The notes under the pieces: generated by a model
Seen by the model: only the letters and a program-made list of their open reading frames with translations
Told to the model about the DNA's origin: nothing
Database searches by the model: none
In this document: positions 2,378-20,066 of the stretch, piece after piece
How positions within the stretch are numbered: position 1 is the first letter of the stretch
How the letters are laid out: every line of letters starts with the position of its first letter
Assembly: GCF_003428155.1 (NCBI RefSeq)
Contig: NZ_QLIR01000001.1
Location: 1 to 32,000, forward strand
Origin: Fastidiosibacter lacustris
Lineage (GTDB): Bacteria > Pseudomonadota > Gammaproteobacteria > Francisellales > Francisellaceae
Direction of reading: 5' to 3'
Length of the DNA stretch: 32,000 bases
Made by a program: the position numbers and the translations under genes

Positions 2378-2528
2378 CATTAAACGTCAACTATAATCAG
2401 ACCCAGTGCTTGATTTAAAGCTTGATTTTGTTTTTCACTTTTTCATCTTTTGTTCCTAGATTATAAGTTTTAGCCAGCATGACCTATGAACGAATTTACA
2501 CAGTTATTTTATCCCTTCCCCAGGGTTG

Positions 2529-2804
2529 TCACTTATTTAACAATGCTTCAAGTTGCTGAATTTTTTCTCTTAATTGTAAGATAATTGAAATACCCGAGGC
2601 ATTTACACCTAGGTCATAAGCAAGACGCATAGCAGACTTTGCTCGCACAATATCCGATGCTGCAATGTAATAAATATCTTGCTTATGCTCAGCATAAATC
2701 ACTTCATGCTCAATCCACTCCACAATAATCGCTTGTGGAACACATAGCAATTTTGACAGTTCAACAACAGTAATATATTGGCTTTCTGATATGATTTCAC
2801 TCAT
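2529..2804 (-). CDS. cbpM: chaperone modulator CbpM (MerR-like)
   Basis: A 91-aa ORF lies 4 nt downstream of cbpA on the same strand. It is MerR-HTH-like (ITVVELSKLLCVPQAIIVEWIEHEVI) and keeps the conserved cbpA-cbpM operon layout. Confidence 0.75.
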   Translation of the reverse strand: MSEIISESQYITVVELSKLLCVPQAIIVEWIEHEVIYAEHKQDIYYIAASDIVRAKSAMRLAYDLGVNASGISIILQLREKIQQLEALLNK

Positions 2805-2808
2805 TACG

Positions 2809-3741: not shown

Positions 3742-3823
3742 TTATTGTCCTTAATTCTAAATAGCAAGTCTCACACTTTTGACTGTGATAATGACGAATA
3801 ACTCCACCTTGATCTTAAGTAAT

Positions 3824-4291
3824 CTAATTTAGTCCTCTAAGGTACTCTAATACTTCCTCAACATGTCCTAGGACTGAAACCTTACGCCATTCTTTTATTA
3901 ATTTGACTTCGGGATTGATAATAAAAGTACTACGTTCAATGCCCATATATTTTTTGCCAAACATGCTTTTTTCTTTAAGCACCTCAAAGGCATTACATAA
4001 TATCATGTCTGTATCTGCTATTAATTCAAATGGCATATGATGCTTTGCCTTGAATTTTTCATGTGAGTTCAAAGTATCTTTTGAAACACCAAATATCACA
4101 GCATTGGCTTTAGCAAAATCTTCGCTGTGATTCTTAAATCCAACGCTTTCGATTGTGCAACCTGGGGTGCTGTCTTTAGGGTAAAAGTATAGTATGACAT
4201 ACTTGCCTTTGTAGTCATTTAACTTAAATGTTTTACCAGATGTTGTTGCTACTTGAGGTAACGTTACTTTATTGCCAACTTGAAAAGTCAT
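3824..4291 (-). CDS. bcp: thioredoxin-dependent peroxiredoxin Bcp
   Basis: A 155-aa ORF with the peroxidatic motif YFYPKDSTPGCT and an AhpC/TSA fold pattern. Confidence 0.85.
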   Translation of the reverse strand: MTFQVGNKVTLPQVATTSGKTFKLNDYKGKYVILYFYPKDSTPGCTIESVGFKNHSEDFAKANAVIFGVSKDTLNSHEKFKAKHHMPFELIADTDMILCNAFEVLKEKSMFGKKYMGIERSTFIINPEVKLIKEWRKVSVLGHVEEVLEYLRGLN

Positions 4292-4372
4292 TGTCTATAC
4301 TCCTTAACTTCGATTATTATATACTTCTTATTAAATATGCTTACTTTAACAAAACCTAATAAGAGATAAAGC

Positions 4373-4909
4373 ATGTCACAACAAAAAACCAATCACTTAA
4401 ATCCGATTAAATCAGCTAAAGAGAACCTTGTAATCGACAAAACCTTTGTTTTTTCAAACTTAGATACACTTCATGATTGCGTCATAAAGGGTGAATATAG
4501 CTTTCACTTTAGTGGCAACTTTAGCTGTCAGCATGAAAAAACGTTGTTAGATGGGAAAGTCACAGGTAACGTTGAGCTTATCTGTCAGCGCACACTTGAG
4601 CCATTTACCTTCAATATAGAAAGTGACATTAAACTTGGTTTTGTTACTGATGATCGCTTCTTTAAAAACTTTCCTGATGACTACGAACCCTATATCTATA
4701 AAGATAACCAAATTGATTTAACTCATCTGATCGAAGAGGAAGTTCTGTTGTGTATTCCAATGATTCCAAAAAAAGAACGAAATGATTGTCAAGTTGAACA
4801 AAATACGCCATACTGTGGCGTTCTTGAAACTGGTGATACTGAAAAGCAGGACAAACACAACCCGTTTGCTGCTTTAAAAGAGCTAAAGTTTAATAAAAAA
4901 TTAAAGTAG
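4373..4909 (+). CDS. yceD: YceD/DUF177 large-subunit ribosome-associated protein
   Basis: A 178-aa acidic ORF lies immediately upstream of rpmF. This is the conserved yceD-rpmF-plsX-fabH arrangement. Confidence 0.8.
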   Translation: MSQQKTNHLNPIKSAKENLVIDKTFVFSNLDTLHDCVIKGEYSFHFSGNFSCQHEKTLLDGKVTGNVELICQRTLEPFTFNIESDIKLGFVTDDRFFKNFPDDYEPYIYKDNQIDLTHLIEEEVLLCIPMIPKKERNDCQVEQNTPYCGVLETGDTEKQDKHNPFAALKELKFNKKLK

Positions 4910-4934
4910 AAAGTAGTGTAATAGGAGAATAATA

Positions 4935-5120
4935 ATGGCTGTACAGCAAACCAGAAAAAGTCGCTCAAAAAGAGATATGCGTCGCTCTCATGATGCATTA
5001 ACTGCTGCTGCGCTTTCAACTGATAAAACTTCGGGTGAAGTTCACTTGCGTCATCACGTAAGTGCAAACGGTTACTATAAAGGAAAGAAAGTAGTTGCCG
5101 TTGCATCTGATGATGAATAG
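4935..5120 (+). CDS. rpmF: 50S ribosomal protein L32
   Basis: [22 protein letters not shown] is the canonical L32 N-terminus. An RBS (aggagaa) lies upstream. Confidence 0.95.
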
Positions 5121-5157
5121 AATGAGTGCACGATAAGGCAATTATTCTAAATATACT

Positions 5158-6210
5158 GTGAGCACCGCAATTTCATATAAAATTTCTGTTGATGCTATGG
5201 GTGGTGACCATGGCTTAAAAACCACCATACCTGCGTGCATATCTGCATTGAACAAATATTCCAATCTGCATATTTCTATAGTTGGGATCTCTGACCAAAT
5301 TGAGCAAGCACTAAGTGCATCTAAAAACCGCTATGATGCTAGTCGCTTAACGGTTGTTCATGCTAGTGAAATCGTTGAAATGGATGAATCCCCTGCTTTA
5401 GTATTACGTAATAAAAAGGATTCTTCGATGCGAGTAGCCATTAACCTTGTCAAAAATCATGATGTCGATGCTTGTGTCAGTGCTGGTAATACAGGGGCAT
5501 TAATGGCAACTTCTAAATTTGTATTAAAAACACTAAACGACATTGATCGCCCCGCCATCGTTTATGCTATTCCATCCTTAGATCGAAAAACTAAGAAAAT
5601 GGATCCAGCATACATGCTTGATTTGGGGGCAAATGTGAATTGTTCCTCTGAACAACTGTTTCAATTTGGCATTATGGGCTCGGTACTTGCTGCCAATTTA
5701 AAAGGCAAAGAACGACCTCGCGTTGCTTTGCTAAATATTGGTGAAGAAGAAATGAAAGGTTTAGATAGCATTAAGCAAGCTGCTAAAATGCTCCAAAATT
5801 GTGATCACATTAATTATATCGGTTATGTTGAAGGCAACGATATTTTTTCAGCAAAGGCAGATGTTATTGTATGTGATGGTTTTGCTGGTAATATCGCCTT
5901 AAAAACTATGGAGGGCACTGCTAGAATCATAGCCGACATGCTAAAAGACAGCTTCACTAGCAGTATATTTTCTAAGCTTGCGATGCTTATTAGTGCATCG
6001 GTGCTTAAAAGCCTAAAAAGCAAACTTGATACAAATCAATATAACGGTGCATCTTTATTAGGGTTACGTGGGATTGTGATCAAAAGTCACGGGGGTGCTT
6101 CTGCAGAAGCCTTTGAAACTGCAATCTATGAAGCGATTAAAGAAATCAAATTTAATATTCCACAAAAAACACAGTCGCACATTGAGCGAATAATGCAATC
6201 AGAAGGTTAA
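5158..6210 (+). CDS. plsX: phosphate acyltransferase PlsX
   Basis: It carries ISVDAMGGDHG and GNTGALM motifs and is 350 aa long. The GTG start is taken from the ORF track, and the exact start is uncertain. Confidence 0.9.
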   Translation: MSTAISYKISVDAMGGDHGLKTTIPACISALNKYSNLHISIVGISDQIEQALSASKNRYDASRLTVVHASEIVEMDESPALVLRNKKDSSMRVAINLVKNHDVDACVSAGNTGALMATSKFVLKTLNDIDRPAIVYAIPSLDRKTKKMDPAYMLDLGANVNCSSEQLFQFGIMGSVLAANLKGKERPRVALLNIGEEEMKGLDSIKQAAKMLQNCDHINYIGYVEGNDIFSAKADVIVCDGFAGNIALKTMEGTARIIADMLKDSFTSSIFSKLAMLISASVLKSLKSKLDTNQYNGASLLGLRGIVIKSHGGASAEAFETAIYEAIKEIKFNIPQKTQSHIERIMQSEG

Positions 6211-6215
6211 AGGAT

Positions 6216-7181
6216 ATGTTTGCAAAAATCATTGGCACAGGCAGTTATCTACCACAAATGATCTTGCGCAACGGTGAGATTGCCAAAATGGTCGATACAT
6301 CAGATGAGTGGATTAGACAACGTGTTGGTATTAAAGAACGTCATATTGCTGATGAAACAGAAACCACATCCTTTATGGCAATTGAAGCTGCACGGCATGC
6401 ATTGACAAGTGCTCACTTAACAGCAAACGACATTGATCTCATTATCGTTGCAACAGGTACAGCCGACTACATTATGCCTTCAACTGCCAGTATTGTTCAA
6501 ATGAAACTTCATACCCCTAACTGTCCTGCTTTTGATATTTCTGCTGCCTGTAGTGGTTTTGTTTATGCGGTAGATATCGCCAAACAATATATTGAAAATG
6601 GAAGCAGCAAAAATGCACTTGTGATTGCATCAGAGCGTATGTCACGCACTTTAAACTGGCAGGATCGCTCTACATGTGTGTTGTTTGGTGATGGTGCAGG
6701 CGCAATTGTGCTTACACAAAGCAAAACACCTGGAATTATTGCATCGGTGCTTCATACCGATGGTCAAGGCAAAGATATTTTAAACATTCCTGGTCTTCTT
6801 CCTAAAAATGCTTTTGATGGCGTAAAACTTGAACAAAAACTCTATATGGAAGGTAACAAGGTTTTTAAAAAAGCGGTATCTGCATTAAGCGAACTGGTAA
6901 ATGAGCTGCTACATGAGGCCAAATTAAGTTCCCATGAAATCGACTGGTTGGTACCGCACCAAGCAAACTATCGTATCCTTGAAGCAACAGCAAAAAAACT
7001 TAACATGCCTATGTCTCAAGTCGTGCTTACCCTGCAAAACCATGGCAATACATCCGCAGCCTCCATTCCGTTAGCGCTTGATTATGCAATACGTAATAAC
7101 ACGATTAAACCAGGGCAAACCATTCTCACGGAAGCTTTTGGAGCAGGTTTAGTATGGGGAGGTTTTATAGCAAAATTATAA
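6216..7181 (+). CDS. fabH: 3-oxoacyl-ACP synthase III (FabH)
   Basis: Catalytic Cys (DISAACSGFVYA), His (VPHQANYRI) and Asn (HGNTSAASIP) contexts are present. Length is 321 aa. Confidence 0.95.
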   Translation: MFAKIIGTGSYLPQMILRNGEIAKMVDTSDEWIRQRVGIKERHIADETETTSFMAIEAARHALTSAHLTANDIDLIIVATGTADYIMPSTASIVQMKLHTPNCPAFDISAACSGFVYAVDIAKQYIENGSSKNALVIASERMSRTLNWQDRSTCVLFGDGAGAIVLTQSKTPGIIASVLHTDGQGKDILNIPGLLPKNAFDGVKLEQKLYMEGNKVFKKAVSALSELVNELLHEAKLSSHEIDWLVPHQANYRILEATAKKLNMPMSQVVLTLQNHGNTSAASIPLALDYAIRNNTIKPGQTILTEAFGAGLVWGGFIAKL

Positions 7182-7431
7182 ATCTTCCCTCAACGACTTT
7201 CTTTACAAGAAGACATTGAAAAAGATCTTGCTATGGTTTAGCTTTTAGAACGTTTCAGCGTAATTATCGCAATGTTTTTAGCAGTAGGATTGTTGGCTTG
7301 CTTAAGTGATGAATTATCAAAACATCTTTCTGTTAACACATATCATTCCTCCACCGAAATTTTTATCTACACGTACTACACTTCAGGGTCATAAAAGTAA
7401 TTACTTTGTGTGCTACTTAATCAAAACCTAC

Positions 7432-7460
7432 TTGCCTTTGTATCTTATCAGCTTTACAAT
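7432..7460 (+). promoter_or_regulatory. putative sigma70 promoter of ssrA
   Basis: TTGCCT (7432-7437), a 17-nt spacer, then TACAAT (7455-7460), ending 12 nt upstream of the mature tmRNA 5' end. Confidence 0.45.
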
Positions 7461-7472
7461 GACAGTGTCACT

Positions 7473-7882
7473 GGGGGCGAATATGGCTTCGACGGGAATG
7501 TCAAGGTCTTACGGTGCATGCCGAGGGTGTATCTGCCTCGTAAAACACGTTATATCGTCAGAATAACTGGCAACAATAAAAAAGCTCGCGTTGTGGCTAA
7601 CGACAGCATTTTCGCTGTTCGTAAAGCTGCTTAATCTAGTTTAAAACCCTAGATACGCACGAACCGATAGTATTTGCTTGTGGATCTATCTTACGTTCGT
7701 TCATATTGACATAAGCTAGCTAAAGTGTCCGTCTGAACACTGATGTTAAATTCTAAGACTCGCTGGTTTCATACCCTGATTTATCGGGTAGACTCAAGTT
7801 AAACATAATAGATAAATCTAAGCATGTAGATCTGAAGATTGCGAGTTTACGGACGCGGGTTCAACTCCCGCCGCCTCCACCA
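7473..7882 (+). ncRNA. ssrA: tmRNA (SsrA), one-piece, 410 nt
   Basis: The 5' GGGGGCG (7473-7479) pairs with CGCCTCC (7872-7878), including the G3:U alanine identity pair, and is followed by ACCA (7879-7882). The T-arm is GGACGCGGGTTCAACTCCCGCC. The internal tag frame 7569-7634 encodes GNNKKARVVANDSIFAVRKAA plus a stop. Confidence 0.95.
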
Positions 7883-7892
7883 TTTTGAAAAA

Positions 7893-7943
7893 GAAAACCC
7901 GTCAATCCAGAGACATTCTCTGAGTAGGCGGGTTTTCTTTTTT
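7893..7943 (+). terminator. Rho-independent terminator of ssrA
   Basis: A 9-bp outer stem, GAAAACCCG (7893-7901) with CGGGTTTTC (7929-7937), encloses an inner CAGAGA-cat-TCTCTG hairpin. A T6 run follows at 7938-7943. Confidence 0.6.
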
Positions 7944-8270
7944 CCCTTGTTTCTAAATGGTTTGCGCCCGTTTCACATCTTTCCAAATCACCTCTCCGCA
8001 CCATCTATTCTCCCCATCTTCCAGCCTTTCTTTCTCTGTTTGACCACTGATTCTCTGTTTTCTTCGGACCAAGTCTGAAATACGTCACTTACAACGGTAG
8101 CATATACAATACCATCGATCTGTTTCGTTGCCTCGGACCAACTACTGCGCTAAGCCTCATAATTCGCCTTAATCGACTTTGCCATGCCCATACTTACGCA
8201 AAAAGAGTTGCCAGTGGTCAGTGGTTACGCCCGTGAGCATGCTTTTGCGGCCTTATCCGGACGAAAGCGT

Positions 8271-8299
8271 TTGACAATCGGCCCCTGCCTAAATATATT
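8271..8299 (+). promoter_or_regulatory. near-consensus sigma70 promoter upstream of the island operon
   Basis: TTGACA (8271-8276), a 17-nt spacer, then TATATT (8294-8299), about 95 nt upstream of the HTH gene start at 8394. Confidence 0.45.
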
Positions 8300-8393
8300 A
8301 AAGGGCATTTTAACTTGGGGAAGCTCCGCCCAGCATCCCCATTATCACCTCTGGCGTGGCAAGAAAACCAATCGCCCTTGAGGAGTCGGAGAT

Positions 8394-8609
8394 ATGACCG
8401 AGATAGAAGACCGCTGGTTATCAGTAGACGAGATAGGCAAGTACCTCGGTGTCAGCAGTGACACCGTTTACCGCTGGATCGACAAGCATGCGATGCCCGC
8501 CCATCGCATGGGTCGTCTTTGGAAGTTCAAAAAGGATCAGGTCGATGCCTGGGTCGAGGCTGGTGGCGCCAGTTCCACGCAAGACAAGTTGGAAGATAAA
8601 AACAATTAA
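8394..8609 (+). CDS. excisionase-family / MerR-superfamily helix-turn-helix DNA-binding protein
   Basis: The 71-aa ORF reads WLSVDEIGKYLGVSSDTVYRWIDKHAMPAHRMGRLWKFKKDQVDAW, the classic HTH_17/excisionase-type motif often found in front of hsdM. RBS: GGAGTCGGAG. Confidence 0.7.
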   Translation: MTEIEDRWLSVDEIGKYLGVSSDTVYRWIDKHAMPAHRMGRLWKFKKDQVDAWVEAGGASSTQDKLEDKNN

Positions 8610-8663
8610 CCAACCTGCCTGGGCCAAGCGTAGCACGGCAGGCAGGCTCGGTGAGGATTTATA

Positions 8664-10240
8664 ATGGCGAAGAAAGCGATTAATAACAAAAAACAAAAGA
8701 GCTTTGAGGAAACCCTTTGGGATTCCGCGAACAAGCTGCGCGGCAGTGTTGAACCTTCAGAATATAAGCATGTGGTGCTGAGTTTGATTTTTCTCAAGTT
8801 CGCATCGGATAAATTTGAAGAACGCATGCAGGAATTGATTGATGAAGGTCAAGGCGACTATGTGGGTATGGTGGAATTCTATACCATGAAAAACGTCTTC
8901 TATCTGCCGAAGAGACCCGCTGGAGCTTTATCAAGCAACACGCAAAACAAGATGATGTTGCCCTGAAAATTGATAGCGCCCTGTTCTCAATTGAGAAAGT
9001 TAACAAGTCCTTAAAAGGAGCATTACCAGATAACTATTTCTCTCGCCTAAATCTAGATGTTAGCAAACTGGCTGCTCTCATTGACACAATCAACAATATC
9101 AATACGCTTGCTGACAAGTCGCAGGATATTGTCGGACGGGTTTATGAGTATTTCCTGAGTAAATTTGCTCTCGCCGAAGGCAAAGGCAAGGGAGAGTTCT
9201 ATACCCCCAAAAGCATAGTAAATTTGATTGCAGAAATGATTGAGCCCTACAAAGGCAAGATTTATGACCCCTGCTGCGGTTCGGGCGGTATGTTCGTCCA
9301 GTCCATGAAATTTATAGAAAACCACCAAGGAAACAAAAAAGACATCTCCATTTACGGACAGGAATATACTGGAGCCACCTATAAGCTGGCCAAGATGAAT
9401 CTGGCTATCCGTGGCATTGCCGCCAACCTTGGTGAAGTTGCCGCAAGCACCTTTTCACGTGACCAGCACAAAGACTTAAAAGCTGATTACATCATGGCCA
9501 ATCCGCCGTTCAACCAGAAGGATTGGCGTGCATCCGATGAGCTGACCGATGATTCACGCTGGTCAGGCTATGACGTTCCGCCAACTAGCAACGCCAACTA
9601 CGGCTGGATTCTGCACATGGCGTCCAAGTTATCAGAAAACGGCGTGGCCGGATTCATTCTGGCAAACGGCGCTCTCTCCGGCGACAACACAGAGAAAGAA
9701 ATCCGCAAGAAGATGATTAAGAATCACCTTGTGGAAGCGGTGATCATCCTGCCACGAAACATGTTCTACACCACTGATATCAGTGTGACGCTCTGGATCT
9801 TGAACAAAAATAAAAAGACCAGAACTGTTGAGCATGGCGACATTTCCCGCCACTACCGCGACCGTGAAGATGAGATTTTGTTTATGGATCTGCGTGAGAT
9901 TGGCGAGCCGTTTGAAAAGAAATTTATACAGTTTTCAGATGAGCATATACAGAAAATTTCCAGCACCTATCACACATGGCAGCAAACTCTCGCTGAGACG
10001 GAATACAAAAATATTCCTGAATACTGCTATTCAGCGAGTCTCGATGAGATCAGAACCAAGGACTATTCCCTCGTGCCAAGTAAATATATCGAGTTTGTAA
10101 ATCGGGACGAGAATATCGATTTCGATGAAAAAATGGCTGGCCTGCAGACGGAATTTACAGATTTATTGAAAGCAGAAGAAGCGTCAAAAAATGAACTGCT
10201 GAATGTATTCAGGGAGCTGGGATATGAGATCAAGCTATAA
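8664..10240 (+). pseudogene. hsdM: Type I R-M methyltransferase subunit HsdM, interrupted by a 1-nt frameshift near 8910
   Basis: The N-terminal part has the HsdM_N signature (LWDSANKLRGSVEPSEYKHVVLSLIFLKF). After FYLP the homology continues in the -1 frame: ETRWSFIKQH...GRVYEYFLSKFALAEGKGKGEFYTPKSIV. Motif I is DPCCGSGGMF and motif IV is NPPF. There are no stops in the second frame between 8912 and 10240. Confidence 0.85.
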
Positions 10241-11327
10241 AAGAATGGGTGACTACATTCGCAAAGTAGACAACCGAAACAAAGATGTTCTCGTTACCGA
10301 TCCTGTTTTTGAGATAGTCGATCACAATAAGGTACATCCCGAATATTTAATGATGTGGATGCGAAGGAGTGAGTTTGACCGATATGTGTTTTTTCGGTGT
10401 GACAGTGCCATTCGAGGAGGCTTCGGCTGGGAAGAACTATGTGATGTTGCACTCCCCGTGCCGACCATCGAAAAACAGCGGGAGATTGTGCGGGAGTACT
10501 ACACCATTGTTGACCGGATTAAGTTAAACGAACAACTCAACCAGAAGCTGGAAGAAACGGCACAGGCTATCTACAAGCAGTGGTTCGTCGATTTTGAATT
10601 TCCCATGTCTAAAGAGCATGCCGCCAAAATCGGCAAGCCGGAACTGGAAGGCAAACCCTACAAATCCAGCGGCGGCAAAATGGTTTGGAATGATGAATTG
10701 GATCAGGAGATTCCGGAGGGGTGGGAAAATGGAACAGTTGAATCATTTTCTGAATTAATCGACGGTGATAGGGGGAAAAGCTACCCCAGTCAGGGTGATT
10801 TTTTTGAAGAAGGACACTGTCTGTTTCTAAATACTGGCAATGTTACAAAAAGTGGGTTTGATTTTTCTTCTACTAGTTTCATAACTGCAGAGAAGAATAA
10901 TGCCCTAAGAAAAGGAAAGCTAAAGCGATATGACTCAGTTCTCACAACGTGTGGAACAGTTGGCAACTGTGCCTACTTCAGCGATGAAGTTGAGTATGAT
11001 CATTTAAGAATCAATTCAGGAATGATTATTATTCGTTCTCTTGATGTGGCTAAATATAAAGTATTCAACTATCAGCTACTAAAGAGCCCAATGATGAAAA
11101 ATGCGATATCCAGCTTTCTGTCGGGTTCGGCACAGCCACAACTCCCCATCAAAGACATTAGAAGAATCAACATTTTGAAGCCTGTGGATGCTTATATTGA
11201 AAAATCAATGGAGTTGATTGAGCCTCTTCAGAAAAATATTGATGGCAACAATAAGAATATTAGAAAATCAAAAGAGTTGTTATCGCTTCTTCTTTCCAAA
11301 ATGACAAAAGCGGAGGCAATTGCATGA
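10224..11327 (+). CDS. hsdS: Type I R-M specificity subunit HsdS (first TRD apparently shortened)
   Basis: The central conserved helix is LPVPTIEKQREIVREYYTIVDRIKLNEQLNQKLEETAQAIYKQWFVDFEFP, followed by a full-size second TRD and a C-terminal conserved helix. I chose the start at 10224 (RBS GGGAG 7 nt upstream), which overlaps the hsdM 3' end. Starts at 10203 and 10245 are also possible. Confidence 0.75.
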   Translation: MRSSYKRMGDYIRKVDNRNKDVLVTDPVFEIVDHNKVHPEYLMMWMRRSEFDRYVFFRCDSAIRGGFGWEELCDVALPVPTIEKQREIVREYYTIVDRIKLNEQLNQKLEETAQAIYKQWFVDFEFPMSKEHAAKIGKPELEGKPYKSSGGKMVWNDELDQEIPEGWENGTVESFSELIDGDRGKSYPSQGDFFEEGHCLFLNTGNVTKSGFDFSSTSFITAEKNNALRKGKLKRYDSVLTTCGTVGNCAYFSDEVEYDHLRINSGMIIIRSLDVAKYKVFNYQLLKSPMMKNAISSFLSGSAQPQLPIKDIRRINILKPVDAYIEKSMELIEPLQKNIDGNNKNIRKSKELLSLLLSKMTKAEAIA

Positions 11328-11464
11328 CGATTGCCGCCGGAACCATCAATTACCAATTAGGGACCGCACCGGTCACCGGATGCGGCTTCTCTTATTCTGC
11401 CGATGAGTTTGATACTGCATTGTCAGGTTCTGTCGCAGATTATGGATGGGAGGTTGGATTATGA
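11324..11464 (+). CDS. 46-codon ORF bridging hsdS and the RloC-like gene (hypothetical)
   Basis: The ORF encodes MTIAAGTINYQLGTAPVTGCGFSYSADEFDTALSGSVADYGWEVGL. Its ATG overlaps the hsdS stop (ATGA, 11324-11327) and its TGA overlaps the next gene's ATG (ATGA, 11461-11464). It is below the ORF-track size cut-off, and I recognise no homology. Confidence 0.35.
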   Translation: MTIAAGTINYQLGTAPVTGCGFSYSADEFDTALSGSVADYGWEVGL

Positions 11465-14016
11465 GCCAGCAATCGAAAACACACGCGAAAGATTACTTGG
11501 TTGATTTTTCACAAGATCAGTGTGACTGGTTAAAGTTGCTTATTTTCGAAGCAGTAAACACCAATGGTAAAATATCTGACGGAAAATTGGACGAGATTTA
11601 TTCCAACCTTAAAAGCGGGACAGCAGTTCAACAGCCGAGCCTCAACACACGTTCTGCATCGAACACTCAGATCATTTCAATAAAGAAGTTGGAACACATT
11701 AGTGGCGTTAATGCGCTGGCAGCCAACCAAACCATAAAATTCAGTGAACATGTAACCGTTCTTTACGGGCTAAATGGTGCAGGAAAAAGTAGCTATTTCA
11801 AGGTACTTAATGAGATTGTTGGAGGGAATGAACAAAAGGAGCTTCTGTCTAATATCCACGCAGATCAAAATCAATCAATTCAAGTAAAGCTGACCTACAA
11901 TAATGGCAGTAGCAAGGACTTGAATTTTGATAACACCCAAAGAGGTTTTGATGATCTGTTAAGGTGCAAGGTCTTTGATTCTTCTTATCTGGCGGGTCTG
12001 CTTTCGCAGCGCACTCAAGACGAAACTGTTTTAGAACCGTTGGGATTACATATTTTTAAATACATTGCTGACAAAATTGATGCGTTTAAGCTTCGGTTGA
12101 GAAACGATGCCGACCGATTAAAAGGAAGTAAACCATCAATCTCTCTTGAAAATGTCTCTGATCAATTAAAGGGTGAATTTGAGGCACATAATCTGTCAGA
12201 AGCATCAATTTCCTCAATGCGCAAGAAGTTTGTATTCACGGAGGAACAAGAAAAACAGCTTAAAGAAAAAACAAGCGAACGAACAACTCTGAGGCAAACC
12301 AATTATGCAGACCGCATTACTCTCTTGGAAATAGAGAATAAGGAAGTTAGACAGATTTATAATTGCCTGAAAAAGAAAAAACAGCTGGAGACGAAAGCTT
12401 TATATCTTCACGAATTACTGAAAAATAAAAGGGATAAGGAAAGTGCTAATAAGCAGGCATTGGAGAAGATCGCTATCCTCAAAGAGCTCCCTTTCTCGGG
12501 ATCTGCGGAGTGGAAAGGTTTTATTTCAGCCGGAGCGAAGCTAAAACAAAAGAGCAACACGGGCGGAGCAAACTGCATTTACTGCAATCAGCCATTACAA
12601 GATGATGCGCTCAGATTAGTTCAGGCATATTCGGAATATTTAGGAGATAAAACCGAGAGCGAATTAAAAAAAGCAACGGATGACTTAACCAAAGCCAAGG
12701 GGGAGGTTAATGCCATAGCGGTTTCGCTAAATGTTTCTGATAATTTCAGCCAGAAATACAAAGAGGCTCTTCTTGAGAACACCGGAACTTCGTTGACCAT
12801 CGCACTAGATGAAGCTCAAAGATCTCTTGAAGGCTTAAAATCTCATTTAATTGATTTGATTGATGGACAGATGCAAGAGCAACCCCGTGTTGAGGTAGCT
12901 CCCCAACTCTGTCTTTGGCTTGTTAGTAAGTATAAAGAAAATGCTCGAACTATTAGAACACTCAAGGCGGATGACACTCAAAAGAACGAAAAGATTAAAA
13001 CCTTGGAGAATGAGCTCAAAGTTCTCATGGAAAACGAATCCGTCTCTACGCAACAAGCAGAAATTGAGAGTTGGCTGAAGATCGATAAGGAAGAGAAGCT
13101 TCTAAGGGAAAAAGAATCCGAGATAAACACCAATTCCGTTACTCGCCTTTCAAATACAGCACATGACGAGCTATTAACCTCTGAATTGAACAAAGCCTTC
13201 AAAAATGAGCTTGATCAGCTCGGTTATAAAAACCTAGAAGTGAATTTAGTCAAAGCCGAAGGGGGCAAGGGCTCCAGTTCGACCAAGCTGATTCTTGAAA
13301 ACAGCGATTCCATTCATAGCATCCTGAGTGAAGGAGAACAAAAGGCAGTTGGCTTGGCTCTATTTATTGCAGAAGCAGTTGTTCAAAAATCGAAAGCACC
13401 GATAATTTTGGATGATCCGGTAAACAGTCTGGATCATAAGATTGCCGCCAATTTCGCAAACAGACTTCTTGCGCTAGATAATCAGCTCATAATCTTCAAT
13501 CACAATAGATTGTTTCAGGATGCCTTTGAAACTGCTAAGGCTGGGCATATATGCAAAACTGTCGACTCCGCCTGCAATAAACAGGGCAAGCATATTCTGG
13601 TTTACACTGTAAGCTCTGAGGGAAAGTCACGAAAAGGGGTTCTAAGCTTCTATCGTACCAACACCTTCAACGATCACATTGGTGAAGCAAAGCAAGAGCT
13701 ACAAAAATCACCCTTTACAGAGCATTCAAAAGTATCCGCCATACTGCGAAAAGCTGTGGAGTGTCTGGTTGATGAAACCGTTTTAAACGGTGTTACGCCA
13801 ACAAAGTATAGTAACAAGAATAGCAGGATTCCTTGGGATAAACTCACAGGCTTGAATTGTTCTTCTGAAAATATTGAGAAGATGAGAAAAGTCCACGATC
13901 GTGTTTCTGGAGGCGATCTACACAACGGCACAGAGTCGGAAAACAATCCTATTGATGTTGAGGAGTTTAACCGATTGGTCTCTGATTTGGAAAACGTCAC
14001 AGGAGGTGACTCATGA
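11461..14016 (+). CDS. AAA_13-type (PrrC/RloC-like) ABC/SMC-fold ATPase with coiled-coil CxxC hook; putative anticodon nuclease
   Basis: - Walker A GLNGAGKSS (11767-11793).
- A long charged, coiled-coil-like insert containing CIYC (12574-12585).
- Signature LSEGEQ (13324-13341) and Walker B IILDDP (13402-13419).
- C-terminal LRKAVE (R 13747, E 13759) followed by His residues at 13894 and 13921, as in the PrrC/RloC R-x3-E...H triad.
- Start placed at 11461 behind RBS GGAGG. Confidence 0.7.
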   Translation: MSQQSKTHAKDYLVDFSQDQCDWLKLLIFEAVNTNGKISDGKLDEIYSNLKSGTAVQQPSLNTRSASNTQIISIKKLEHISGVNALAANQTIKFSEHVTVLYGLNGAGKSSYFKVLNEIVGGNEQKELLSNIHADQNQSIQVKLTYNNGSSKDLNFDNTQRGFDDLLRCKVFDSSYLAGLLSQRTQDETVLEPLGLHIFKYIADKIDAFKLRLRNDADRLKGSKPSISLENVSDQLKGEFEAHNLSEASISSMRKKFVFTEEQEKQLKEKTSERTTLRQTNYADRITLLEIENKEVRQIYNCLKKKKQLETKALYLHELLKNKRDKESANKQALEKIAILKELPFSGSAEWKGFISAGAKLKQKSNTGGANCIYCNQPLQDDALRLVQAYSEYLGDKTESELKKATDDLTKAKGEVNAIAVSLNVSDNFSQKYKEALLENTGTSLTIALDEAQRSLEGLKSHLIDLIDGQMQEQPRVEVAPQLCLWLVSKYKENARTIRTLKADDTQKNEKIKTLENELKVLMENESVSTQQAEIESWLKIDKEEKLLREKESEINTNSVTRLSNTAHDELLTSELNKAFKNELDQLGYKNLEVNLVKAEGGKGSSSTKLILENSDSIHSILSEGEQKAVGLALFIAEAVVQKSKAPIILDDPVNSLDHKIAANFANRLLALDNQLIIFNHNRLFQDAFETAKAGHICKTVDSACNKQGKHILVYTVSSEGKSRKGVLSFYRTNTFNDHIGEAKQELQKSPFTEHSKVSAILRKAVECLVDETVLNGVTPTKYSNKNSRIPWDKLTGLNCSSENIEKMRKVHDRVSGGDLHNGTESENNPIDVEEFNRLVSDLENVTGGDS

Positions 14017-15440
14017 TCCCCTTCCACCCCTACGAAGACGAATGCACTGAATTCAAGCGGGAACTCACCGATACGCTGGAAAAGGAAGTCGTGGCATTTC
14101 TCAATTCCGCCAAGGGCGGGGACATCTATATCGGGGTGGAGGACGATGGCACGGTGGTTGGCGTTGACAATCCGGACAAGTTGCAATTGGCGATTATTGA
14201 TCGGATCAAAAACAATATTTTGCCGACGACCCTTGGCTTTTTTGATGTGGTTACACAGGAGATTGACGGCAAGCCGGTCATTAAGGTGATTGTTACCCGT
14301 GGACTCGAAAAACCGTATTACCTGAAAAAATACGGTATGTCTCCCGCCGGGGCGCACATTCGGGTGGGCACGGGAACGCAGCCGCTGACCACCGAGATGA
14401 TCGACCGCTTATATGCCACCCGCACGCGGGATTCGTTGCGCAATATCCCCTCGCCGCGAAAGAACCTGAGTTTTCATCAGTTCAAAATCTATTACGATGA
14501 GAAGGGTTTTACGGTAAACGATTCATTCCTTGAAAACCTCGACCTCTATGCCCCAAACGGCGAGCTGAATTATGTGGCATACCTTTTGGCGGATCAAAAC
14601 AGCGTCTCCATTAAAGTCGCCAAGTTTGCGGGACCAGACAAACTTGATTTGATTGAAAACGAGGAATATGGCTATTGTTCGCTCATCAAGGCGACTGAGC
14701 GGGTTCTGGATAAGCTGGAAATTGAAAACAGGACTTTTGCCAAAGTAACGGGCGCCGCCAGAAGGCTAGAGAAAAATATGATTGATAAAGCGGCACTGCG
14801 TGAAGCATTTATCAATGCCATCGTTCATAACGACTATACGCGGGAAATGACTCCGGTGGTGGAGATTTACTCAGACCGTCTTGCGATTGTTTCTTATGGT
14901 GGATTGGTGCAGGGATTATCCCAGGAAGACTTTTTTGCCGGGCGATCCATGATACGCAATCGTGAGTTGATGCGGGTTTATCGGGATCTGGATCTGGTGG
15001 AGCAATTAGGTTCGGGCATGGGTAAAATCCTTCGTGCTTACTCAAAGGATGTTTTTCGTCTCAGTGAGAATTTCGTAGAGCTTTGTTTCGAGTACGAAGA
15101 GGGATATCTGGAATCTCTAAAGGATGGAGAAAAGAGGGGTGAAAAAACGCGGGTCGAAACGCGGGTGAAAACGTCGGAAAAGAGTTCGGAAAACGCCGAT
15201 GTTTTTCGGAATGATTTCGGAATTATTTCGGAAAGAGTTCGGAAGGAGCTCGGAAGCAACGTAGCGAAGACCTTTGAGATGATCTATCAACACCCTGACC
15301 ATAGCGCTGAGGAGATTGCGGCGGAACTTGGTAAAACAGCTCGGACGATTGAAAACCACATAGCCAAACTCAAAGAAGATGGCGTGATTGTTAGGAAAGG
15401 TCCCAAATTAGGCGGCCACTGGGAGGTTGTAGATGAGTAA
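14013..15440 (+). CDS. AlbA_2 (Schlafen-like) / HATPase_c_4 / C-terminal winged-HTH protein (annotated in databases as putative DNA-binding or RecG-like ATP-binding protein)
   Basis: The N-terminus is AlbA_2-like ([40 protein letters not shown]). The middle is HATPase_c_4-like ([13 protein letters not shown]...[17 protein letters not shown]...[26 protein letters not shown]). The C-terminus is a wHTH ([41 protein letters not shown]). There are ATGA overlaps with both neighbours. Confidence 0.75.
15147..15259 (+). repeat. degenerate tandem-repeat tract: four 12-nt units followed by five 11-nt units with a TTCGGAA core
   Basis: The 12-nt units are ACGCGGGTCGAA, ACGCGGGTGAAA, ACGTCGGAAAAG and AGTTCGGAAAAC (15147-15194). 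TCGGAA cores then start at 15206, 15217, 15228, 15239 and 15250, exactly 11 nt apart. The tract lies inside the AlbA_2 gene linker. Confidence 0.8.
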
Positions 15441-17061
15441 GTTCACCGAAGCCAAACTGGAAGCAGCCATTATCGAGCTCTTACAGCTTGAAGGCTATGA
15501 ATATGTAAGCGGGGAAACCATAACTCGCCCTGAAAATGAAGTCTTACTCAAAGACGATCTGCGCAGCTATCTTTCAAGGCGTTATGCAACAGACCAGATA
15601 ACCATCGGTGAAATTGACTCGATCGTTCGCAAGCTGGAGGTCTTTTCCGCATCTGATCTTTATGAAAGTAACAAAGCCATCATGAAGATGGTCTCTGATG
15701 GCTTTTTGTTGAAGCGTGAAGACCGCAGCAAAAAAGATCTGTATATCCAGTTGCTGGATTATCGGGATCTTCCCGAACTGCGTGAGCCGAAGCCGACGGA
15801 GGTCGAAACCGTCGTTGCCGAGGAAGTTGCCCCTTATAACGCCACCCAAAACATCTATAAGGTGGTGAATCAGTTTGAAATCCTTGGATACGAAAAACGG
15901 ATACCTGACGGCATTATATACATCAACGGTTTGCCCTTGGTGGTTTTTGAATTCAAAAGCGCCATTCGTGAAGAAGCAACCATCCACGATGCCTATGTTC
16001 AGCTGACAACCCGGTACCGCCGGGATATTCCAGAGCTGTTTAAATACAACGCGATTTGTGTGATTAGCAACGGTGTCAATAATAAGGCCGGTTCTTTCTT
16101 TGCCCCGTATGAGTTTTTCTACGCGTGGCGTAAAACCGATGGCGCAGACCTTGTTGAGAAAGATGGCATTGATTCCCTCTACACCATGGTTAAAGGGATG
16201 TTCAACCTGCATCGGATCAGGGACATTATCCGAAACAGCATCCTGGCTCTGGACAAAGAACTGCAGGTGACCCCACTGCAGTACACCATCCAAAGTGGCC
16301 TCCAGAACGATCAGATCACCGATGGTCAACTCAGAAGCGGTGACGGATTCACGCTGACCAACACATCAGTCGAAACCCACAATGCCTTAATCCATTCCAT
16401 GGTCACCTATGATCTGCTTGGGAAAATTGCCGAAAACACTCAACTGACAAGAAAGACCGTAGCCGAGATATTGCGCGGCGTTCAGACGGCGGTTTTCAAG
16501 CAATTCAAACAGAACCCGGAGCATTTCATCGCCGAAGGCTCACGGCTTATCAATGAGCAGAAGGCCACGATCATCATCAAGCGGCTGAGCTACGACAACA
16601 TTGCCGAGACCCACGATATCGATATTTTCACCGCAGGCCAAAGCAAGCAGGACTTCACCAAGGCGAGCGAGAAGCTGAAGAACCACATCTATGACTACGT
16701 GATTACCGACTCCAAGGTTGAGCGGGAGTTTGTGAAAGAGCTGGATACCAGCACCGAGGTGGTCGTCTATGCAAAGCTCCCCAGAGGCTTCCTGATTCCA
16801 ACTCCCGTCGGCGACTACAACCCGGACTGGGCCATTTCCTTCAAAGAAGGTTCGGTCAAGCACATCTATTTCGTCGCCGAGACCAAGGGCTCCATGTCCA
16901 GCATGGAGCTTCGGGCAATCGAACAAACCAAAATCGAATGCGCCCGCAAGTTCTTCGCGGAGGTCAACCGCAAGATTGATCCCGAACACGTGAAATACGA
17001 CGTGGTAACTAGCTACGGGAAACTGATGGAGATTGTCGGCATGGGAGGGGCAAAAGCATGA
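15433..17061 (+). CDS. in-frame fusion: HsdR N-terminal PD-(D/E)xK nuclease domain + Type III Res-like C-terminal nuclease domain; helicase motor absent
   Basis: Residues 1 to about 270 are HsdR_N-like: [14 protein letters not shown], a D...EFK motif (D 15907, E-F-K 15949-15957), then [10 protein letters not shown]...FFYAWRK. From about 16245 the sequence matches Type III Res C-termini as I recall them: [74 protein letters not shown]. No Walker A, DEAH or helicase motifs are present. Confidence 0.7.
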
Positions 17062-19635
17062 ATGAGTTTTCGGCATCACTGACCAAATGGTTTTCAGAGC
17101 GCCCCCAGTGGCTCCAGATCGCGGCTACTCGGCTACTCCAGCAGTCTGAGCTTACCGACAAAGATGTCTCTGAGCTCGCAACCCTATGCCAGCAGGAAGC
17201 CGAAGGTAAGCTGCCCAAAACGACCTGTTCCTTTCCTGCTACCGCGTTCTCCCCGGGCGCAGCAGGCTCCCTGCGTTTGTGTTCAATCAGTGATGTCGAA
17301 GGAGTAAACGCCCTTGCTCCGAAAAAGCCACTTGAGTTTGGCAAGGGCAATATCACGATTGTTTATGGCAACAACGGGTCAGGCAAATCCGGTTACGTCA
17401 GACTCCTCAAACATGTATGCGGAGCCCGCGAGACGGGTACCCTCCACCGCAATGTCTATAAGCCCGGCGCTGCCGCACAGAAAGCCTGCATTTCGTTTGA
17501 GCAGGACGGCGTACCGAAGACTCATACCTGGTCTGGGCAAGGTATCTGCGATGACCTCAACAGCGTTGATATTTTCGACACCTCGTTTGGCAAGGTGTTT
17601 GTCAGCAGCGAAGACGAGGTGAGCTACGAGCCGCCGGTATTATCCTTTTTCAGCTTGCTCATCCTCGCATGCGAAAAGGTCGCATCGGCCTTGGACACCG
17701 AGGCCAACCGGCACCAGTCAAAAAAACCGAATATCCCGGCTGACAAGAAGGTAACTCCTGAAGGCATCTGGTACGAAGCCATCAGCGCCAAGACCAGCAC
17801 CCAGGACATCGACAAGTATTGCGCATTTGGCAGTGCTGACGAAACCGAGATGCAAACGCTGCAGCAGCGCCTTGCCGAACAGGCACCGGCAGAAAAAGCG
17901 AAGCAGCTGAGAAAGCAGAAGCAGCATATCGACACTCTGATCCAGGATGCCCAAAAGTATCTGCAGCAATTATCGGACGAGAATTACCGGCGGATCATTG
18001 CTGCTAAGAAGAAGTCGATTCTCAAAAAGGCAGCGGCAGATACGGCGGCGGAAAAGGTGTTCTCCGGCAGCGAGCTGGAAGGAATCGGCTCTGATGTCTG
18101 GAAAGAACTTTGGGAAGCGGCCCGGAACTACTCCGTCTCGGCTGTCTACAAAGAAACCGAGTACCCGAATGTTTCTGATGGTTCCCGTTGTGTCCTGTGT
18201 CACCAGCCCTTGACCCAGGAGGCCAAGGAGCGGTTGATCTCCTTCGAAAACTTCGTGAAGGGCGAAATGCAGAAAGCCGCAACGGATGCGGCCAAGGAAT
18301 ACGAGACCGCCAATCAAACTATCGAGGCGCTACCGACATCGGAGACGCTGAAGGCACGTATCGATGCGGCTGGTATTCCACAGGATGAAGTCGCCAGCCA
18401 GGTGACGGATTTCTTTGCCCAATTGCAGGCCAGAAAAGACCTGCTCCCTGGGATCGATTCCGAAGAAGCCATTCCCGACCCTCTGCTCTCACCGAAATGG
18501 ATCGAAGAAGCCAACGCCCAGTCGAAGAGCCTCGGTGAACTCGCGGCAAAATATGACGAAGACGCCAAAAGCGATAATCTTGAGGAGATCAAGAAGAAGC
18601 TAAACAGCCTGCAGACCAGAAAGTGGTTGTCTGAACGCCGCGCCGCCATTGATGAAGAAGTCACCCGATTGAAGCTGCTGAATCAGATTCAGGAAGCCAA
18701 GAAGTCGACCAACACCAAAGCCCTATCCCAGAAGAAAGGGGAGCTGGCAGAAGCCTTGATCACGGATGCGTTCGTGCAAAGGTTCAATGCAGAGCTCAAG
18801 GCCCTGGGCGCGTCTCGGGTGAAAGTCGAGCTCGTGAAGTCAAAAGTCTCGAAAGGCCGCGTCCTTCATAAGCTCCAGCTTCGAGGGGCTTCTCAGAATG
18901 GGCTCGCCGATGTGCTGAGCGAGGGAGAAAATCGGATCGTTTCCATTGCGGCTTTCTTAGCCGACGTCACCGGCAAGAGCAACCAGGCTCCGTTTATCTT
19001 TGACGATCCAATATCCTCGTTGGACCAAAGCTATGAGGAGGCCGTGGTTCAAAGACTGATCGAGTTGTCTCAGGAAAAACAGGTCATAGTCTTTACTCAC
19101 CGCCTGTCCTTGCTGGGAACGGTCCGGCATTTTGCCGAGAAAAAGACCATCAAGCCCGATGTGGTGAGCATTCGCTCTGCGGACTGGGGGGACCGGAGAG
19201 CCCGCGCCCATTCCACTTTCACAGAGCGACATCAAATCCGCCCTGAACACACTCATGAATCAGCGGTATCAGGATGCAAAGAAGGCGAGTGAAAACGGCG
19301 AGTTTGAACATGCCGAAATCTTGCTGAAGTCGATATGTAGCGACTTCAGGACATTGGTGGAGCGCTCTATTGAAAATGATCTGCTGTGCGGAGTGGTTCA
19401 AAGATTCCAACGACCGGTCCATACGTTGAAGCTCAAGGATCTGGCCAAATTGAAGGACGCGGATTGCAATCTCCTTGATTCGCTCATGACCAAATACTCC
19501 GGGTTCGAACACTCACAGCCAGCAGAATCACCAGTGGAGCTGCCGAAGCCAGACGAGCTTCTGGGCGACATGACTTCGCTAAAAAACTGGCGTGAAGAAT
19601 ACGCGAAGCGCCCCGCCTCTGCGGTGGCCGGGTAA
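17058..19635 (+). pseudogene. second AAA_13-type (RloC-like) ATPase, split by a +1 frameshift in a G6 run (19186-19191)
   Basis: - Walker A GNNGSGKSG (17367-17393) and CVLC hook (18189-18200).
- Signature LSEGEN (18915-18932) and Walker B FIFDDP (18993-19010).
- After ADWG the homology continues in the +1 frame: TGEPAPIPLSQSDIKSALNTLMNQRY...FRTLVE (R 19348, E 19360)...YSGFEH (H 19510).
- Removing one G gives a single ORF of about 858 aa. Confidence 0.7.
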
Positions 19636-19639
19636 CAGT

Positions 19640-19957
19640 ATGAAAGTTCTTCATACATCCGACTGGCATATCGGCCGCACCCTTTACGGCAGAAAACGCT
19701 ACGAGGAATTCTCTGCGTTTCTGGATTGGCTGACCCAGACCATTGAAGATGAAACCGCGTGGTTGACCCAGGCACACATGGCAGAACTATTTCAGGTGAA
19801 ACCGCAAAATATTACCATGCACCTGAAAAACATCTATGCTGAGGGGGAATTGGCGGAAGAGTCAACTTGTAAGGAGTTCTTACAAGTTCAACAAGAGGGT
19901 GCAAGACAGGTTGAAAGAAAACGGAAATTTTACACTCTGGATGCCATTATAAAGTAA
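19640..19957 (+). pseudogene. chimeric remnant: SbcD N-terminus (about 35 aa) fused to an internal RhuM-family fragment (about 70 aa)
   Basis: MKVLHTSDWHIGRTLYGRKRYEEFSAFLDWL is the metallophosphoesterase motif-I start of SbcD. TAWLTQAHMAELFQVKPQNITMHLKNIYAEGELAEESTCKEFLQVQQEGARQVERKRKFYTLDAII matches the N-terminal region of RhuM-family proteins. The ORF ends exactly where host-type AT-rich DNA resumes. Confidence 0.65.
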
Positions 19958-20066
19958 AGCGCTGCTGAGTAATTTAAATGGTTAACACTAGGTTCTGTGA
20001 AGTTGAGTTGGCTCAAACGAGCGAGCATCTAGATTAGAAGTCCATTTCATCGAGGCACGTATCTTT

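Follow-up and report, generated by a model that had tools for sequence, protein, structure and literature searches.

The window, the whole stretch of DNA that was analysed, comprises 32,000 nucleotides of Fastidiosibacter lacustris (contig NZ_QLIR01000001.1, positions 1 to 32,000), a bacterium with 99.4% ANI to its sister strain 'Ca. Nebulobacter yamunensis'. Between about 7883 and 20000 lies a high-GC island (GC 0.42–0.54, against 0.365 for the host), bordered on its left by a tmRNA gene and containing, among other defence genes, an open reading frame (ORF) in which parts of a Type I hsdR and a Type III res are fused in frame. The features of the island are as follows.

7473 to 7882, forward strand: tmRNA gene, left edge of the high-GC island
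8664 to 10240, forward strand: hsdM, frameshifted and inactive through the loss of 1 nt at 8908
10203 to 11327, forward strand: hsdS, lacking 63 codons of TRD1 (in-frame deletion at 10301/10302) relative to the sister strain
11446 to 14016, forward strand: S06a, the first PDC-S06 ATPase gene, full length
14013 to 15440, forward strand: gene with Schlafen AlbA_2, HATPase_c_4 and HTH domains, upstream of the chimera and overlapping its start by 8 nt
15433 to 17061, forward strand: chimeric ORF of 542 codons (WP_116962963.1), with ATG at 15433 and TGA at 17059–17061
15433 to 16236, forward strand: hsdR-derived part of the chimera, codons 1–268, a complete N-terminal PD-(D/E)xK nuclease domain
16230 to 16236, forward strand: recombination joint, a 7-nt microhomology (CCGAAAC) common to the resident-type hsdR and the L006-type res
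16237 to 17061, forward strand: Type III res-derived part of the chimera, codons 269–542, approximately the last 274 residues of a Res protein of about 1025 aa
17058 to 19635, forward strand: S06b, the downstream PDC-S06 (AAA_13) ATPase gene, whose start overlaps the chimera's stop
19640 to 19957, forward strand: sbcD'::rhuM' stub, with 99.7% identity to its counterpart in the sister strain

Neither an integrase in the window nor, at the right edge of the island, an att-like direct repeat copying at least 14 nt of the tmRNA 3' end was detected. Insertions next to tmRNA genes are present in other genomes, as in the loci L006 (Type III) and L014 (Type I). In addition to the lesions in hsdM and hsdS, one surplus G in the G6 run at 19186–19191 interrupts the S06b frame, and TRD2 of hsdS differs from that of the sister strain. 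S06a and S06b belong to one family (PDC-S06/AAA_13) and are 24% identical; S06b is 96% identical to relatives of 858 aa. The Pfam scan detected no mod gene among the window ORFs of at least 100 aa. Outside the island, a deletion of about 2 kb is located at approximately 1203–1215, and other microhomology deletions are present in the F. lacustris genome.

An earlier note on this DNA had described the ORF at 15433–17061, with its 542 codons, as encoding an HsdR nuclease domain fused to the tail of a Type III Res subunit, with the nuclease motif of that tail but no motor, and the extent, the fusion and the nature of the tail have all been confirmed. In the Pfam scan, HSDR_N covers residues 4–225 (profile positions 2–195 of 198, E = 3.8e-34) and RE_endonuc (PF19778) covers residues 417–526, nucleotides 16681–17010 (profile positions 2–106 of 108, E = 1.2e-34), and none of ResIII, SNF2 and Helicase_C matched the chimera at E ≤ 0.01. 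Compared with Type I HsdR (EcoR124I, PDB 2W00; TIGR00348; PADLOC REase_I PDLC03040), residues 1–268 contain the complete nuclease domain, including its D..ExK and QxxxY motifs, and residues 3–274 match positions 4–251 of the 1029-position PADLOC profile. The triad D159/E173/K175 is intact and aligns to EcoR124I HsdR, with the QxxxY motif at residues 190–195. This N-terminal part stops near the boundary between the endonuclease and helicase-1 domains and, unlike HsdR, the chimera has no SF2 motor, no helical/C-terminal assembly domain, and no working HsdM or HsdS. Residues 264–542, in turn, represent the last ~270 profile positions of Type III Res (EcoP15I Res, PDB 4ZCF; PRK15483; PADLOC REase_III PDLC03647), residues 264–534 matching positions 721–985 of the 989-position PADLOC profile. 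The second triad, D465/E483/K485, is likewise intact and aligns to EcoP15I Res, whose residues 843–951 correspond to the RE_endonuc region, whereas the first ~750 residues of a Type III Res, which hold the helicase/ATPase, are missing and no mod accompanies the chimera in the window. As expected from the fact that each half is a fragment, the NCBIfam scores stay below the cut-offs, with 103.7 bits for the hsdR model TIGR00348 (cut-off 284.55) and 68.5 bits for the Type III Res model PRK15483 (cut-off 564).

The start codon of the chimera is preceded by GGAGG, a good Shine–Dalgarno sequence. Overlaps with both neighbouring genes are confirmed: 8 nt are shared with the end of the upstream gene, and the chimera's TGA and the ATG of S06b interlock in ATGA (17058–17061). 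Given this ribosome-binding site and the operon setting, the product may well be translated. An AlphaFold2 model of the chimera, built on a 41-sequence alignment that includes both parent families, was too poor for use (mean pLDDT 44, pTM 0.29).

The joint was mapped by a three-way comparison of the window, the sister-strain hsdR, and the res genes of the loci L006 and L001. The window follows the sister-strain hsdR base for base through ...ATTATCCGAAAC at the junction, and from CCGAAACAGCATCCTGG on it is identical to the L006 res. The shared CCGAAAC encodes part of I-I-R-N in one context and L-I-R-N in the other. An in-frame switch had been suggested at about 16240–16260; the reading frame is indeed continuous, and the position is corrected to 16230–16236. 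Left of the joint (15568–16236), the window has 96.9% DNA identity to the intact hsdR of the sister strain, and right of it 91–93% identity to the 3' ends of full-length Type III res genes from unrelated bacteria.

Both parents can be recognized in other loci. At the same locus, 'Ca. Nebulobacter yamunensis' has an intact hsdR of 1076 aa (L090, 13202–16432), which matches the REase_I profile over its full length and includes the T1R_D3-like and T1RH-like_C domains that are both absent from the chimera. At this site in the sister strain, the intact hsdR precedes an AAA_13 gene other than S06b and then the sbcD' stub that is also present in the window; a Type III locus is absent. This arrangement is syntenic over about 6.4 kb with that of an unrelated island, L014. 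The parts of hsdS and hsdR common to both strains are about 96.5–96.9% identical, compared with 99.5–99.7% in the flanks. On the other side, the res parent in L006 encodes a genuine Type III Res and adjoins a gene for a full-length Mod, and Mod (N6_N4_Mtase) adjoins the intact res relative in both L006 and L001. In L007, res is followed by an S06b-type gene through an ATGA overlap, as in the window. The adjacency of an AlbA gene and hsdR is also found in L030.

The same two-domain architecture was looked for in proteins, GTDB genomes, plasmids and phages, and none was encountered among the best listed matches, each homologue of the chimera covering one half only (best identity 96% for the C half and 90% for the N half). 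Specifically, both halves were combined in none of the 150 best listed of 5235 HMMER matches among 1.84 billion representatives, in 0 of the top 80 loci from GTDB representative genomes, among which the F. lacustris genome itself did not figure, in 0 of 744 plasmid records and in 0 of 14 phage records; two degenerate junction patterns gave no matches in JGI metagenomes. The C half is 93–96% identical to the C-termini of Res proteins of about 1025 aa that adjoin Mod, the N half shares 90% identity with HsdR proteins from metagenomes, and a protein look-up places the exact 542-aa protein on one contig only.

Taken together, the chimera is very probably a one-off recombination scar, the remnant of a gene in a defence island that lies beside the tmRNA gene and is itself decaying. 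No restriction activity is expected of it, because neither ATP-dependent motor is present, the HsdR assembly domain is gone and all partners are missing or broken. In the most likely history, a resident hsdR resembling the 1076-codon gene of the sister strain would have been broken after codon 268 and joined in frame, at CCGAAAC, to a foreign Type III res near its codon 750, and the res fragment would have brought along the PDC-S06 ATPase gene that follows it in translational coupling. The foreign res-S06b-sbcD fragment would thereby have replaced the 3' end of the resident hsdR together with its AAA_13 neighbour. The right-hand crossover of this imported patch would fall at approximately 19640–19650, in the conserved 5' end of sbcD, and the left end would have been joined illegitimately. 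The 'res-S06b piece looks imported because the sister strain has no Type III locus here and is syntenic with L014, and the chimera has stayed open because the two reading frames happened to match at the joint, as they would in one case out of three, and because little time has passed since. The change between the two strains may have run either way, and the fusion may have formed in the donor lineage instead of that of F. lacustris. The sbcD stub is too short for its type to be assigned reliably, 19651–19711 being nearer to the S06b-cassette type and 19712–19754 nearer to the L014 type, and it is given no weight for the direction of the event. Of modest value is a base-resolved case of defence-island remodelling, by patchwork replacement between strains of 99.4% ANI, and a 7-nt joint that fuses two unrelated restriction nuclease domains in frame, which is raw material for new architectures; the enzymological weight is small, as the chimera is most likely an inert remnant.

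Substitutions specific to the window lineage amount to 1 non-synonymous and 22 synonymous in the N half, and to 7 and 21, respectively, in the C half, a pattern similar to that of the sister lineages. Such mostly synonymous change gives no sign of relaxed selection, and it fits a recent event and retention under selection equally well.

Chimeric joints can arise by illegitimate or homology-facilitated illegitimate recombination (HFIR) during the uptake of foreign DNA. The event proposed for the island would have proceeded in a comparable manner, as a 7-nt microhomology marks one joint and a stretch conserved between donor and recipient (the sbcD 5' end) the other, with a foreign GC-rich patch in place of resident genes. 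It differs from HFIR, a term used in PMC6382021 and PMC8504540, in that the anchor is short (~60–115 nt) with the crossover at its edge, and in that the event is reconstructed from sequence.

The earlier note had favoured a simpler origin, one deletion joining a Type I locus to a neighbouring Type III-like locus. Illegitimate joining, now placed at CCGAAAC, is supported, while a single deletion between neighbouring loci is not the history that fits best, given the sister strain without a Type III locus. A single cis deletion between adjoining Type I and Type III loci of the island, whose product would still be a non-functional remnant, is nevertheless the alternative that survives best, although it is unlikely. 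A microhomology joint is the expected trace of a deletion by replication slippage or end joining, further microhomology deletions are known in this genome, and tandem islands are conceivable since elements of this kind insert beside tmRNA genes (L006 and L014). However, a sister strain of 99.4% ANI carries hsdR-AAA_13-sbcD' without Type III genes and in synteny over ~6.4 kb with L014, so that the deletion requires a larger common ancestor and, in the sister strain, a second deletion that arose separately and at exactly the right place. Moreover, the right joint of 'res-S06b is located exactly at the sbcD start, the homology shared by the cassette types, as an imported patch predicts.

The in-frame state might have been favoured, and not a matter of luck alone, if the chimera acted as a leader ORF that passes translational coupling, through ATGA, to the S06b defence gene; the res/S06b ATGA overlap is kept in both L007 and the window, and the event resembles a swap between PDC-S06 variants. 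We regard this as distinctly improbable, since S06b itself is frameshifted and internal initiation could serve the coupling too.

The suggestion in the earlier note that the protein might act as a stand-alone or recruited nuclease finds no support, as the architecture was seen in one genome only among the matches listed, the partners (hsdM, hsdS and mod) are missing or broken, and the neighbours carry lesions. A functional motor-less dual nuclease, acting alone or recruited by the PDC-S06 ATPases or the AlbA_2 protein, would be consistent with two complete PD-(D/E)xK domains with intact catalytic residues, with an open frame that is preceded by a ribosome-binding site and coupled in translation to the genes on either side, and with a window branch free of excess non-synonymous change. 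Yet the couplings come from the parent operons, the in-frame joint is a 1-in-3 chance event, S06b is frameshifted, and the architecture was seen in this genome only among the best listed matches of the collections searched. Cleavage by the nucleases of EcoR124I and EcoP15I depends on delivery by their motor and methyltransferase complexes, and precisely these parts, needed by both parent nucleases, are absent, making a working dual nuclease very unlikely. It is likewise highly improbable that the protein is made and works as a double nuclease without a motor, brought to DNA or controlled by the PrrC/RloC-like PDC-S06 ATPases on either side or by the protein with AlbA_2 and HTH domains; were this so, it would be a newly minted defence effector, just born from the recombination of two restriction systems.

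The flanking ATPases deserve a more precise name. The earlier note had reported a second RloC-like gene after the fusion and had linked its presence to the origin of the fusion; S06b is indeed of the same family as S06a and would have arrived with the res fragment (compare L007), while RloC-like is too loose a description. As an exact label it was rejected, the two proteins being members of PDC-S06/AAA_13 with a PrrC similarity that is weak and resides in a relative, from L014. S06a and S06b (PADLOC PDC-S06, Pfam AAA_13) resemble PrrC/RloC ATPases in their location in restriction-modification operons and in the CxxC motif that both have in the coiled-coil region. Unlike PrrC and RloC, the two proteins fall short of the PADLOC models for these families and yielded no identifiable anticodon-nuclease domain, and S06b is elsewhere followed by SbcD/SbcC-like genes.

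The two neighbouring frameshifts, one of which is in the G6 run, could be sequencing errors, and the picture of decay would then be weakened. That the junction itself is an assembly artefact is scarcely credible, for although the genome of strain SYSU HZH-2 is a draft of 62 contigs in which these two nearby 1-nt frameshifts might be errors, a 7-nt overlap is far below any assembler k-mer or overlap length, a 3.4-kb foreign piece flanked by sister-like DNA (96.9% on the left and 99.7% on the right) would require two misjoins, and the joint is in frame, in a 256-kb contig with a reported coverage of 100x.

The interpretation of the chimera as a remnant bears on its annotation. With Pseudofinder, 129 pseudogene ORFs were counted in the F. 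lacustris genome (PMC9837558), and hsdR_1 is listed among the pseudogenes, with an intact orthologue in Nebulobacter (PMC9837558, Tables S2c and S2e); judged by its position in the ORF order, we take hsdR_1 to be the chimeric ORF. In RefSeq, the product is named 'type I restriction endonuclease', a label that calls for caution, as it is attached to a gene unable to encode one.

The open frame that the earlier note described as an HsdR nuclease domain running into a Type III Res tail, with no helicase, is borne out in that description by Pfam, PADLOC, and NCBIfam.

15433-17061, plus strand, chimeric ORF of 542 codons, open

Pfam recognizes a complete HSDR_N domain (residues 4-225, profile positions 2-195 of 198, E 3.8e-34) and a complete RE_endonuc domain (PF19778; residues 417-526, profile positions 2-106 of 108, E 1.2e-34), and finds neither ResIII, SNF2, DEAD, or Helicase_C nor any further domain. 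In PADLOC, residues 3-274 correspond to positions 4-251 of the 1029-position Type I REase profile and residues 264-534 to positions 721-985 of the 989-position Type III REase profile, and the NCBIfam models for hsdR and Type III Res each match the chimera with scores far under their cut-offs. With respect to solved structures, the nuclease core of EcoR124I HsdR aligns with residues 136-238 and the endonuclease domain of EcoP15I Res with residues 411-518, and both sets of catalytic residues are present, D159/E173/K175 and D465/E483/K485. Structure prediction of the chimera itself was of too poor a quality for use.

By blastn against relatives, hsdR-like DNA occupies 15433-16236 and res-like DNA 16228-17052. 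The window matches the hsdR of the sister strain, 'Ca. Nebulobacter yamunensis' (Nebulobacter), base by base without mismatch as far as GGGACATTATCCGAAAC, and from CCGAAACAGCATCCTGGCTCTGGAC on it matches, again without mismatch, the type of res found at L006, a locus of another genome. Because the heptamer CCGAAAC is common to both, sequence comparison places the crossover within it, at 16230-16236; the switch point proposed earlier was right to within about 10-25 nt. At the protein level, ...RIRDIIRN/FIYFPD of HsdR and ...ELIRN/CIRVLD of Res give ...RIRDIIRN/SILALD, and, judging from the EcoR124I alignment, the break in HsdR would fall roughly where the endonuclease domain gives way to the first helicase domain. 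The res parent, as read from its genes, is a genuine Type III enzyme; at L006, a Mod of 702 aa, which matches the MTase_III profile over its full length, is followed downstream by a Res of 1025 aa, which does the same for the REase_III profile, and at L001 the res stands within an HTH_17-SNF2-DUF4391-methylase-res array.

The ANI between Nebulobacter and F. lacustris is 99.38% (PMC9837558). Identity is 99.47% over window 1203-10301 (left flank, tmRNA, HTH gene, hsdM, and the start of hsdS) and 99.74% in the right flank from 19640 onward. Between these flanks, Nebulobacter carries hsdS and an ABC-3C-type module, along with an hsdR intact at 1076 aa, an AAA_13 gene disrupted by a frameshift, and the 105-codon sbcD' stub also seen in the window, an arrangement syntenic with the unrelated tmRNA-linked island L014 at 89-92% identity. 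Window 15568-16242 is 96.9% identical to Nebulobacter hsdR, the match stopping at the joint, and no counterpart was found in Nebulobacter for 11397-15567 (the PDC-S06 ATPase gene S06a, the AlbA_2 gene, and the first 135 nt of hsdR) or for 16237-19639 ('res and a second ATPase gene, S06b).

The 'res-S06b piece measures 3.4 kb and has a GC content of 0.52-0.54; its left limit is the CCGAAAC joint, and its right limit would be a crossover at about 19640-19650, at the start of sbcD, where a conserved stretch is common to S06b-type and AAA_13-type cassettes. Since the sister-strain arrangement is that of L014, we favour a history in which an imported fragment would have replaced the resident hsdR 3' end and AAA_13, one end being homologous and the other illegitimate. 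Alternatively, a related donor island may have supplied all of 10302-19639 with the joint already in it. The hsdS and hsdR parts common to the strains are only about 96.5-96.9% identical, compared with 99.5-99.7% in the flanks. The single cis deletion put forward in the earlier note, in which a Type I locus is joined to a Type III locus beside it, is plausible in kind, but it requires extra events and is probably wrong in detail. Import, donor island, and cis deletion give the same answer on what the ORF is.

The same two-domain architecture, which the earlier note proposed to seek in other proteins, was not found in any collection searched. The best 120 matches in a search of 5.8 billion clusters each span about half of the query, with a best identity among them of 96% for the C half and 90% for the N half; among 1.84 billion representatives scanned exhaustively with HMMER there were 5235 matches, the best 150 of which each cover residues ~1-275 or ~263-537, none covering both halves. 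Likewise, none of the best 80 loci in GTDB species representatives spans both halves, the plasmid (n = 744) and phage (n = 14) records each match one half with none reaching a coverage of at least 80%, and two degenerate DNA patterns across the joint had no match in the JGI metagenome collection. The exact protein is recorded once, as WP_116962963.1 of Fastidiosibacter lacustris, on a 256,557-bp contig. The Pseudofinder pseudogenes of F. lacustris include ORFs 16, 17 (M protein), 19, hsdR_1, 24, and 25, and an intact orthologue of hsdR_1 is listed for Nebulobacter (PMC9837558 supplementary tables). Given the ORF order and contig identity, hsdR_1 is very likely the chimera, and the gene has apparently been flagged as a pseudogene already, without description as a chimera.

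As established for EcoR124I and EcoP15I, both parent nucleases need an ATP-driven motor and a methyltransferase/specificity complex to bring them to DNA, and do not cut otherwise. In the chimera both motors are gone, and it has no HsdR assembly domains, no Mod, and no working HsdM or HsdS; its translational coupling on either side is a legacy of the parent operons, and an in-frame joint has a prior probability of one in three. For these reasons, the chimera is most probably an inert remnant, possibly still translated. Branch-specific changes on the window branch number 1 non-synonymous to 22 synonymous in the N half and 7 to 21 in the C half, sister branches being alike; such counts, without relaxation, would fit a very recent event and are also compatible with constraint. 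A functional motor-less nuclease is highly improbable, and the suggestion that the product acts alone or is recruited finds no support. On this reading, the chimera adds one more example to a known class, restriction-gene remnants of chimeric structure within defence islands that are decaying and recombining.

about 7883-20000, island, GC 0.42-0.54 versus 0.365 in the host, adjoining the tmRNA gene
8394-8609, 71-aa HTH_17/excisionase-like gene, first gene of the island
19640-19957, sbcD'/rhuM' stub of 105 codons, SbcD-like phosphoesterase start (MKVLHTSDWHIGRTLYGRKR...) with a RhuM/PDC-S05 fragment after ~codon 38
314-1198, minus strand, M24 peptidase remnant

Neither an integrase nor an att repeat for the island was detectable in the window, and no mod gene is present in the island around the chimera. 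Two strains of 99.4% ANI have hsdM disrupted by different single-base frameshifts: F. lacustris has a 1-nt deletion (a missing G) at 8908, and in Nebulobacter (L086) a C-run at window-equivalent 9203 holds one C too many. This points either to independent losses or to errors in one or both draft sequences. hsdS has lost 63 codons of TRD1 in frame at 10301/10302 relative to Nebulobacter and L014, exactly where its identity to the sister strain falls from 99.5% to about 96.5%, and its TRD2 (10722-11287) is unrelated to that of the sister strain. In S06b, an additional G within a G6 run (19186-19191) splits the gene and may reflect a sequencing error; none of the other lesions is of this homopolymer type. 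The sbcD'/rhuM' stub, a second chimeric one, is 99.7% identical to that of Nebulobacter, whose sbcD is listed as a pseudogene (PMC9837558). About 14 kb upstream of the chimera, at 1203-1215, about 1.98 kb present in Nebulobacter (L086 3005-4986) is missing, MFS gene fragments included; this deletion, whose joint shows only short imperfect microhomology, leaves a 294-aa remnant of an M24/creatinase-type peptidase that has 618 aa in Nebulobacter. The tmRNA gene (7473-7882) differs between the strains by one base in its 5'-end G-run (window 7481), which may be a homopolymer sequencing error and bears on trust in other homopolymer frameshifts.

Three unrelated genomes, those of Fastidiosibacter, a Lentisphaeria MAG, and a spirochaete symbiont, have a restriction island immediately beside a tmRNA gene, and the tmRNA 3' end and island edge are 87%-identical DNA in the window and L006.

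window 7851-8058, tmRNA/island edge
L006 2678-3209, tmRNA/island edge
L014 332-703, tmRNA/island edge

In many phyla, both Type I islands (L014) and Type III-like ones (L001, L018) begin with near-identical copies of the HTH_17 gene (931 in the 90% cluster).

The earlier note saw that a fusion origin would account for the second ATPase gene, and this holds: at L007, res and a close homologue of S06b overlap stop to start, as in the window, which explains a second gene of the same family after the chimera. S06a and S06b are both PDC-S06/AAA_13 and 24% identical to each other. At 96% identity, S06b (17058-19635) matches a protein of 858 aa, and the 505 members of that protein's 90%-identity cluster are distributed over Desulfobulbus, Bordetella, Parazoarcus, Halothiobacillus, and many metagenomes; the gene has thus spread very widely and recently. 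In other genomes, the 858-aa S06b heads an S06b (AAA_13)-SbcD-like-SbcC-like-two small ORFs cassette.

L092 6001-13113, S06b cassette directly downstream of BREX genes (PglZ, BrxL)
L094 1287-8399, S06b cassette directly downstream of BREX genes (PglZ, BrxL)

S06b-family ATPases also follow Type III res (L007) and Type I hsdR (L014, Nebulobacter). A ~1.6-kb insertion interrupts the S06b homologue at L007 (11731-13325), and one of ~1.27 kb lies in res near its 3' end at L013 (10779-12052).
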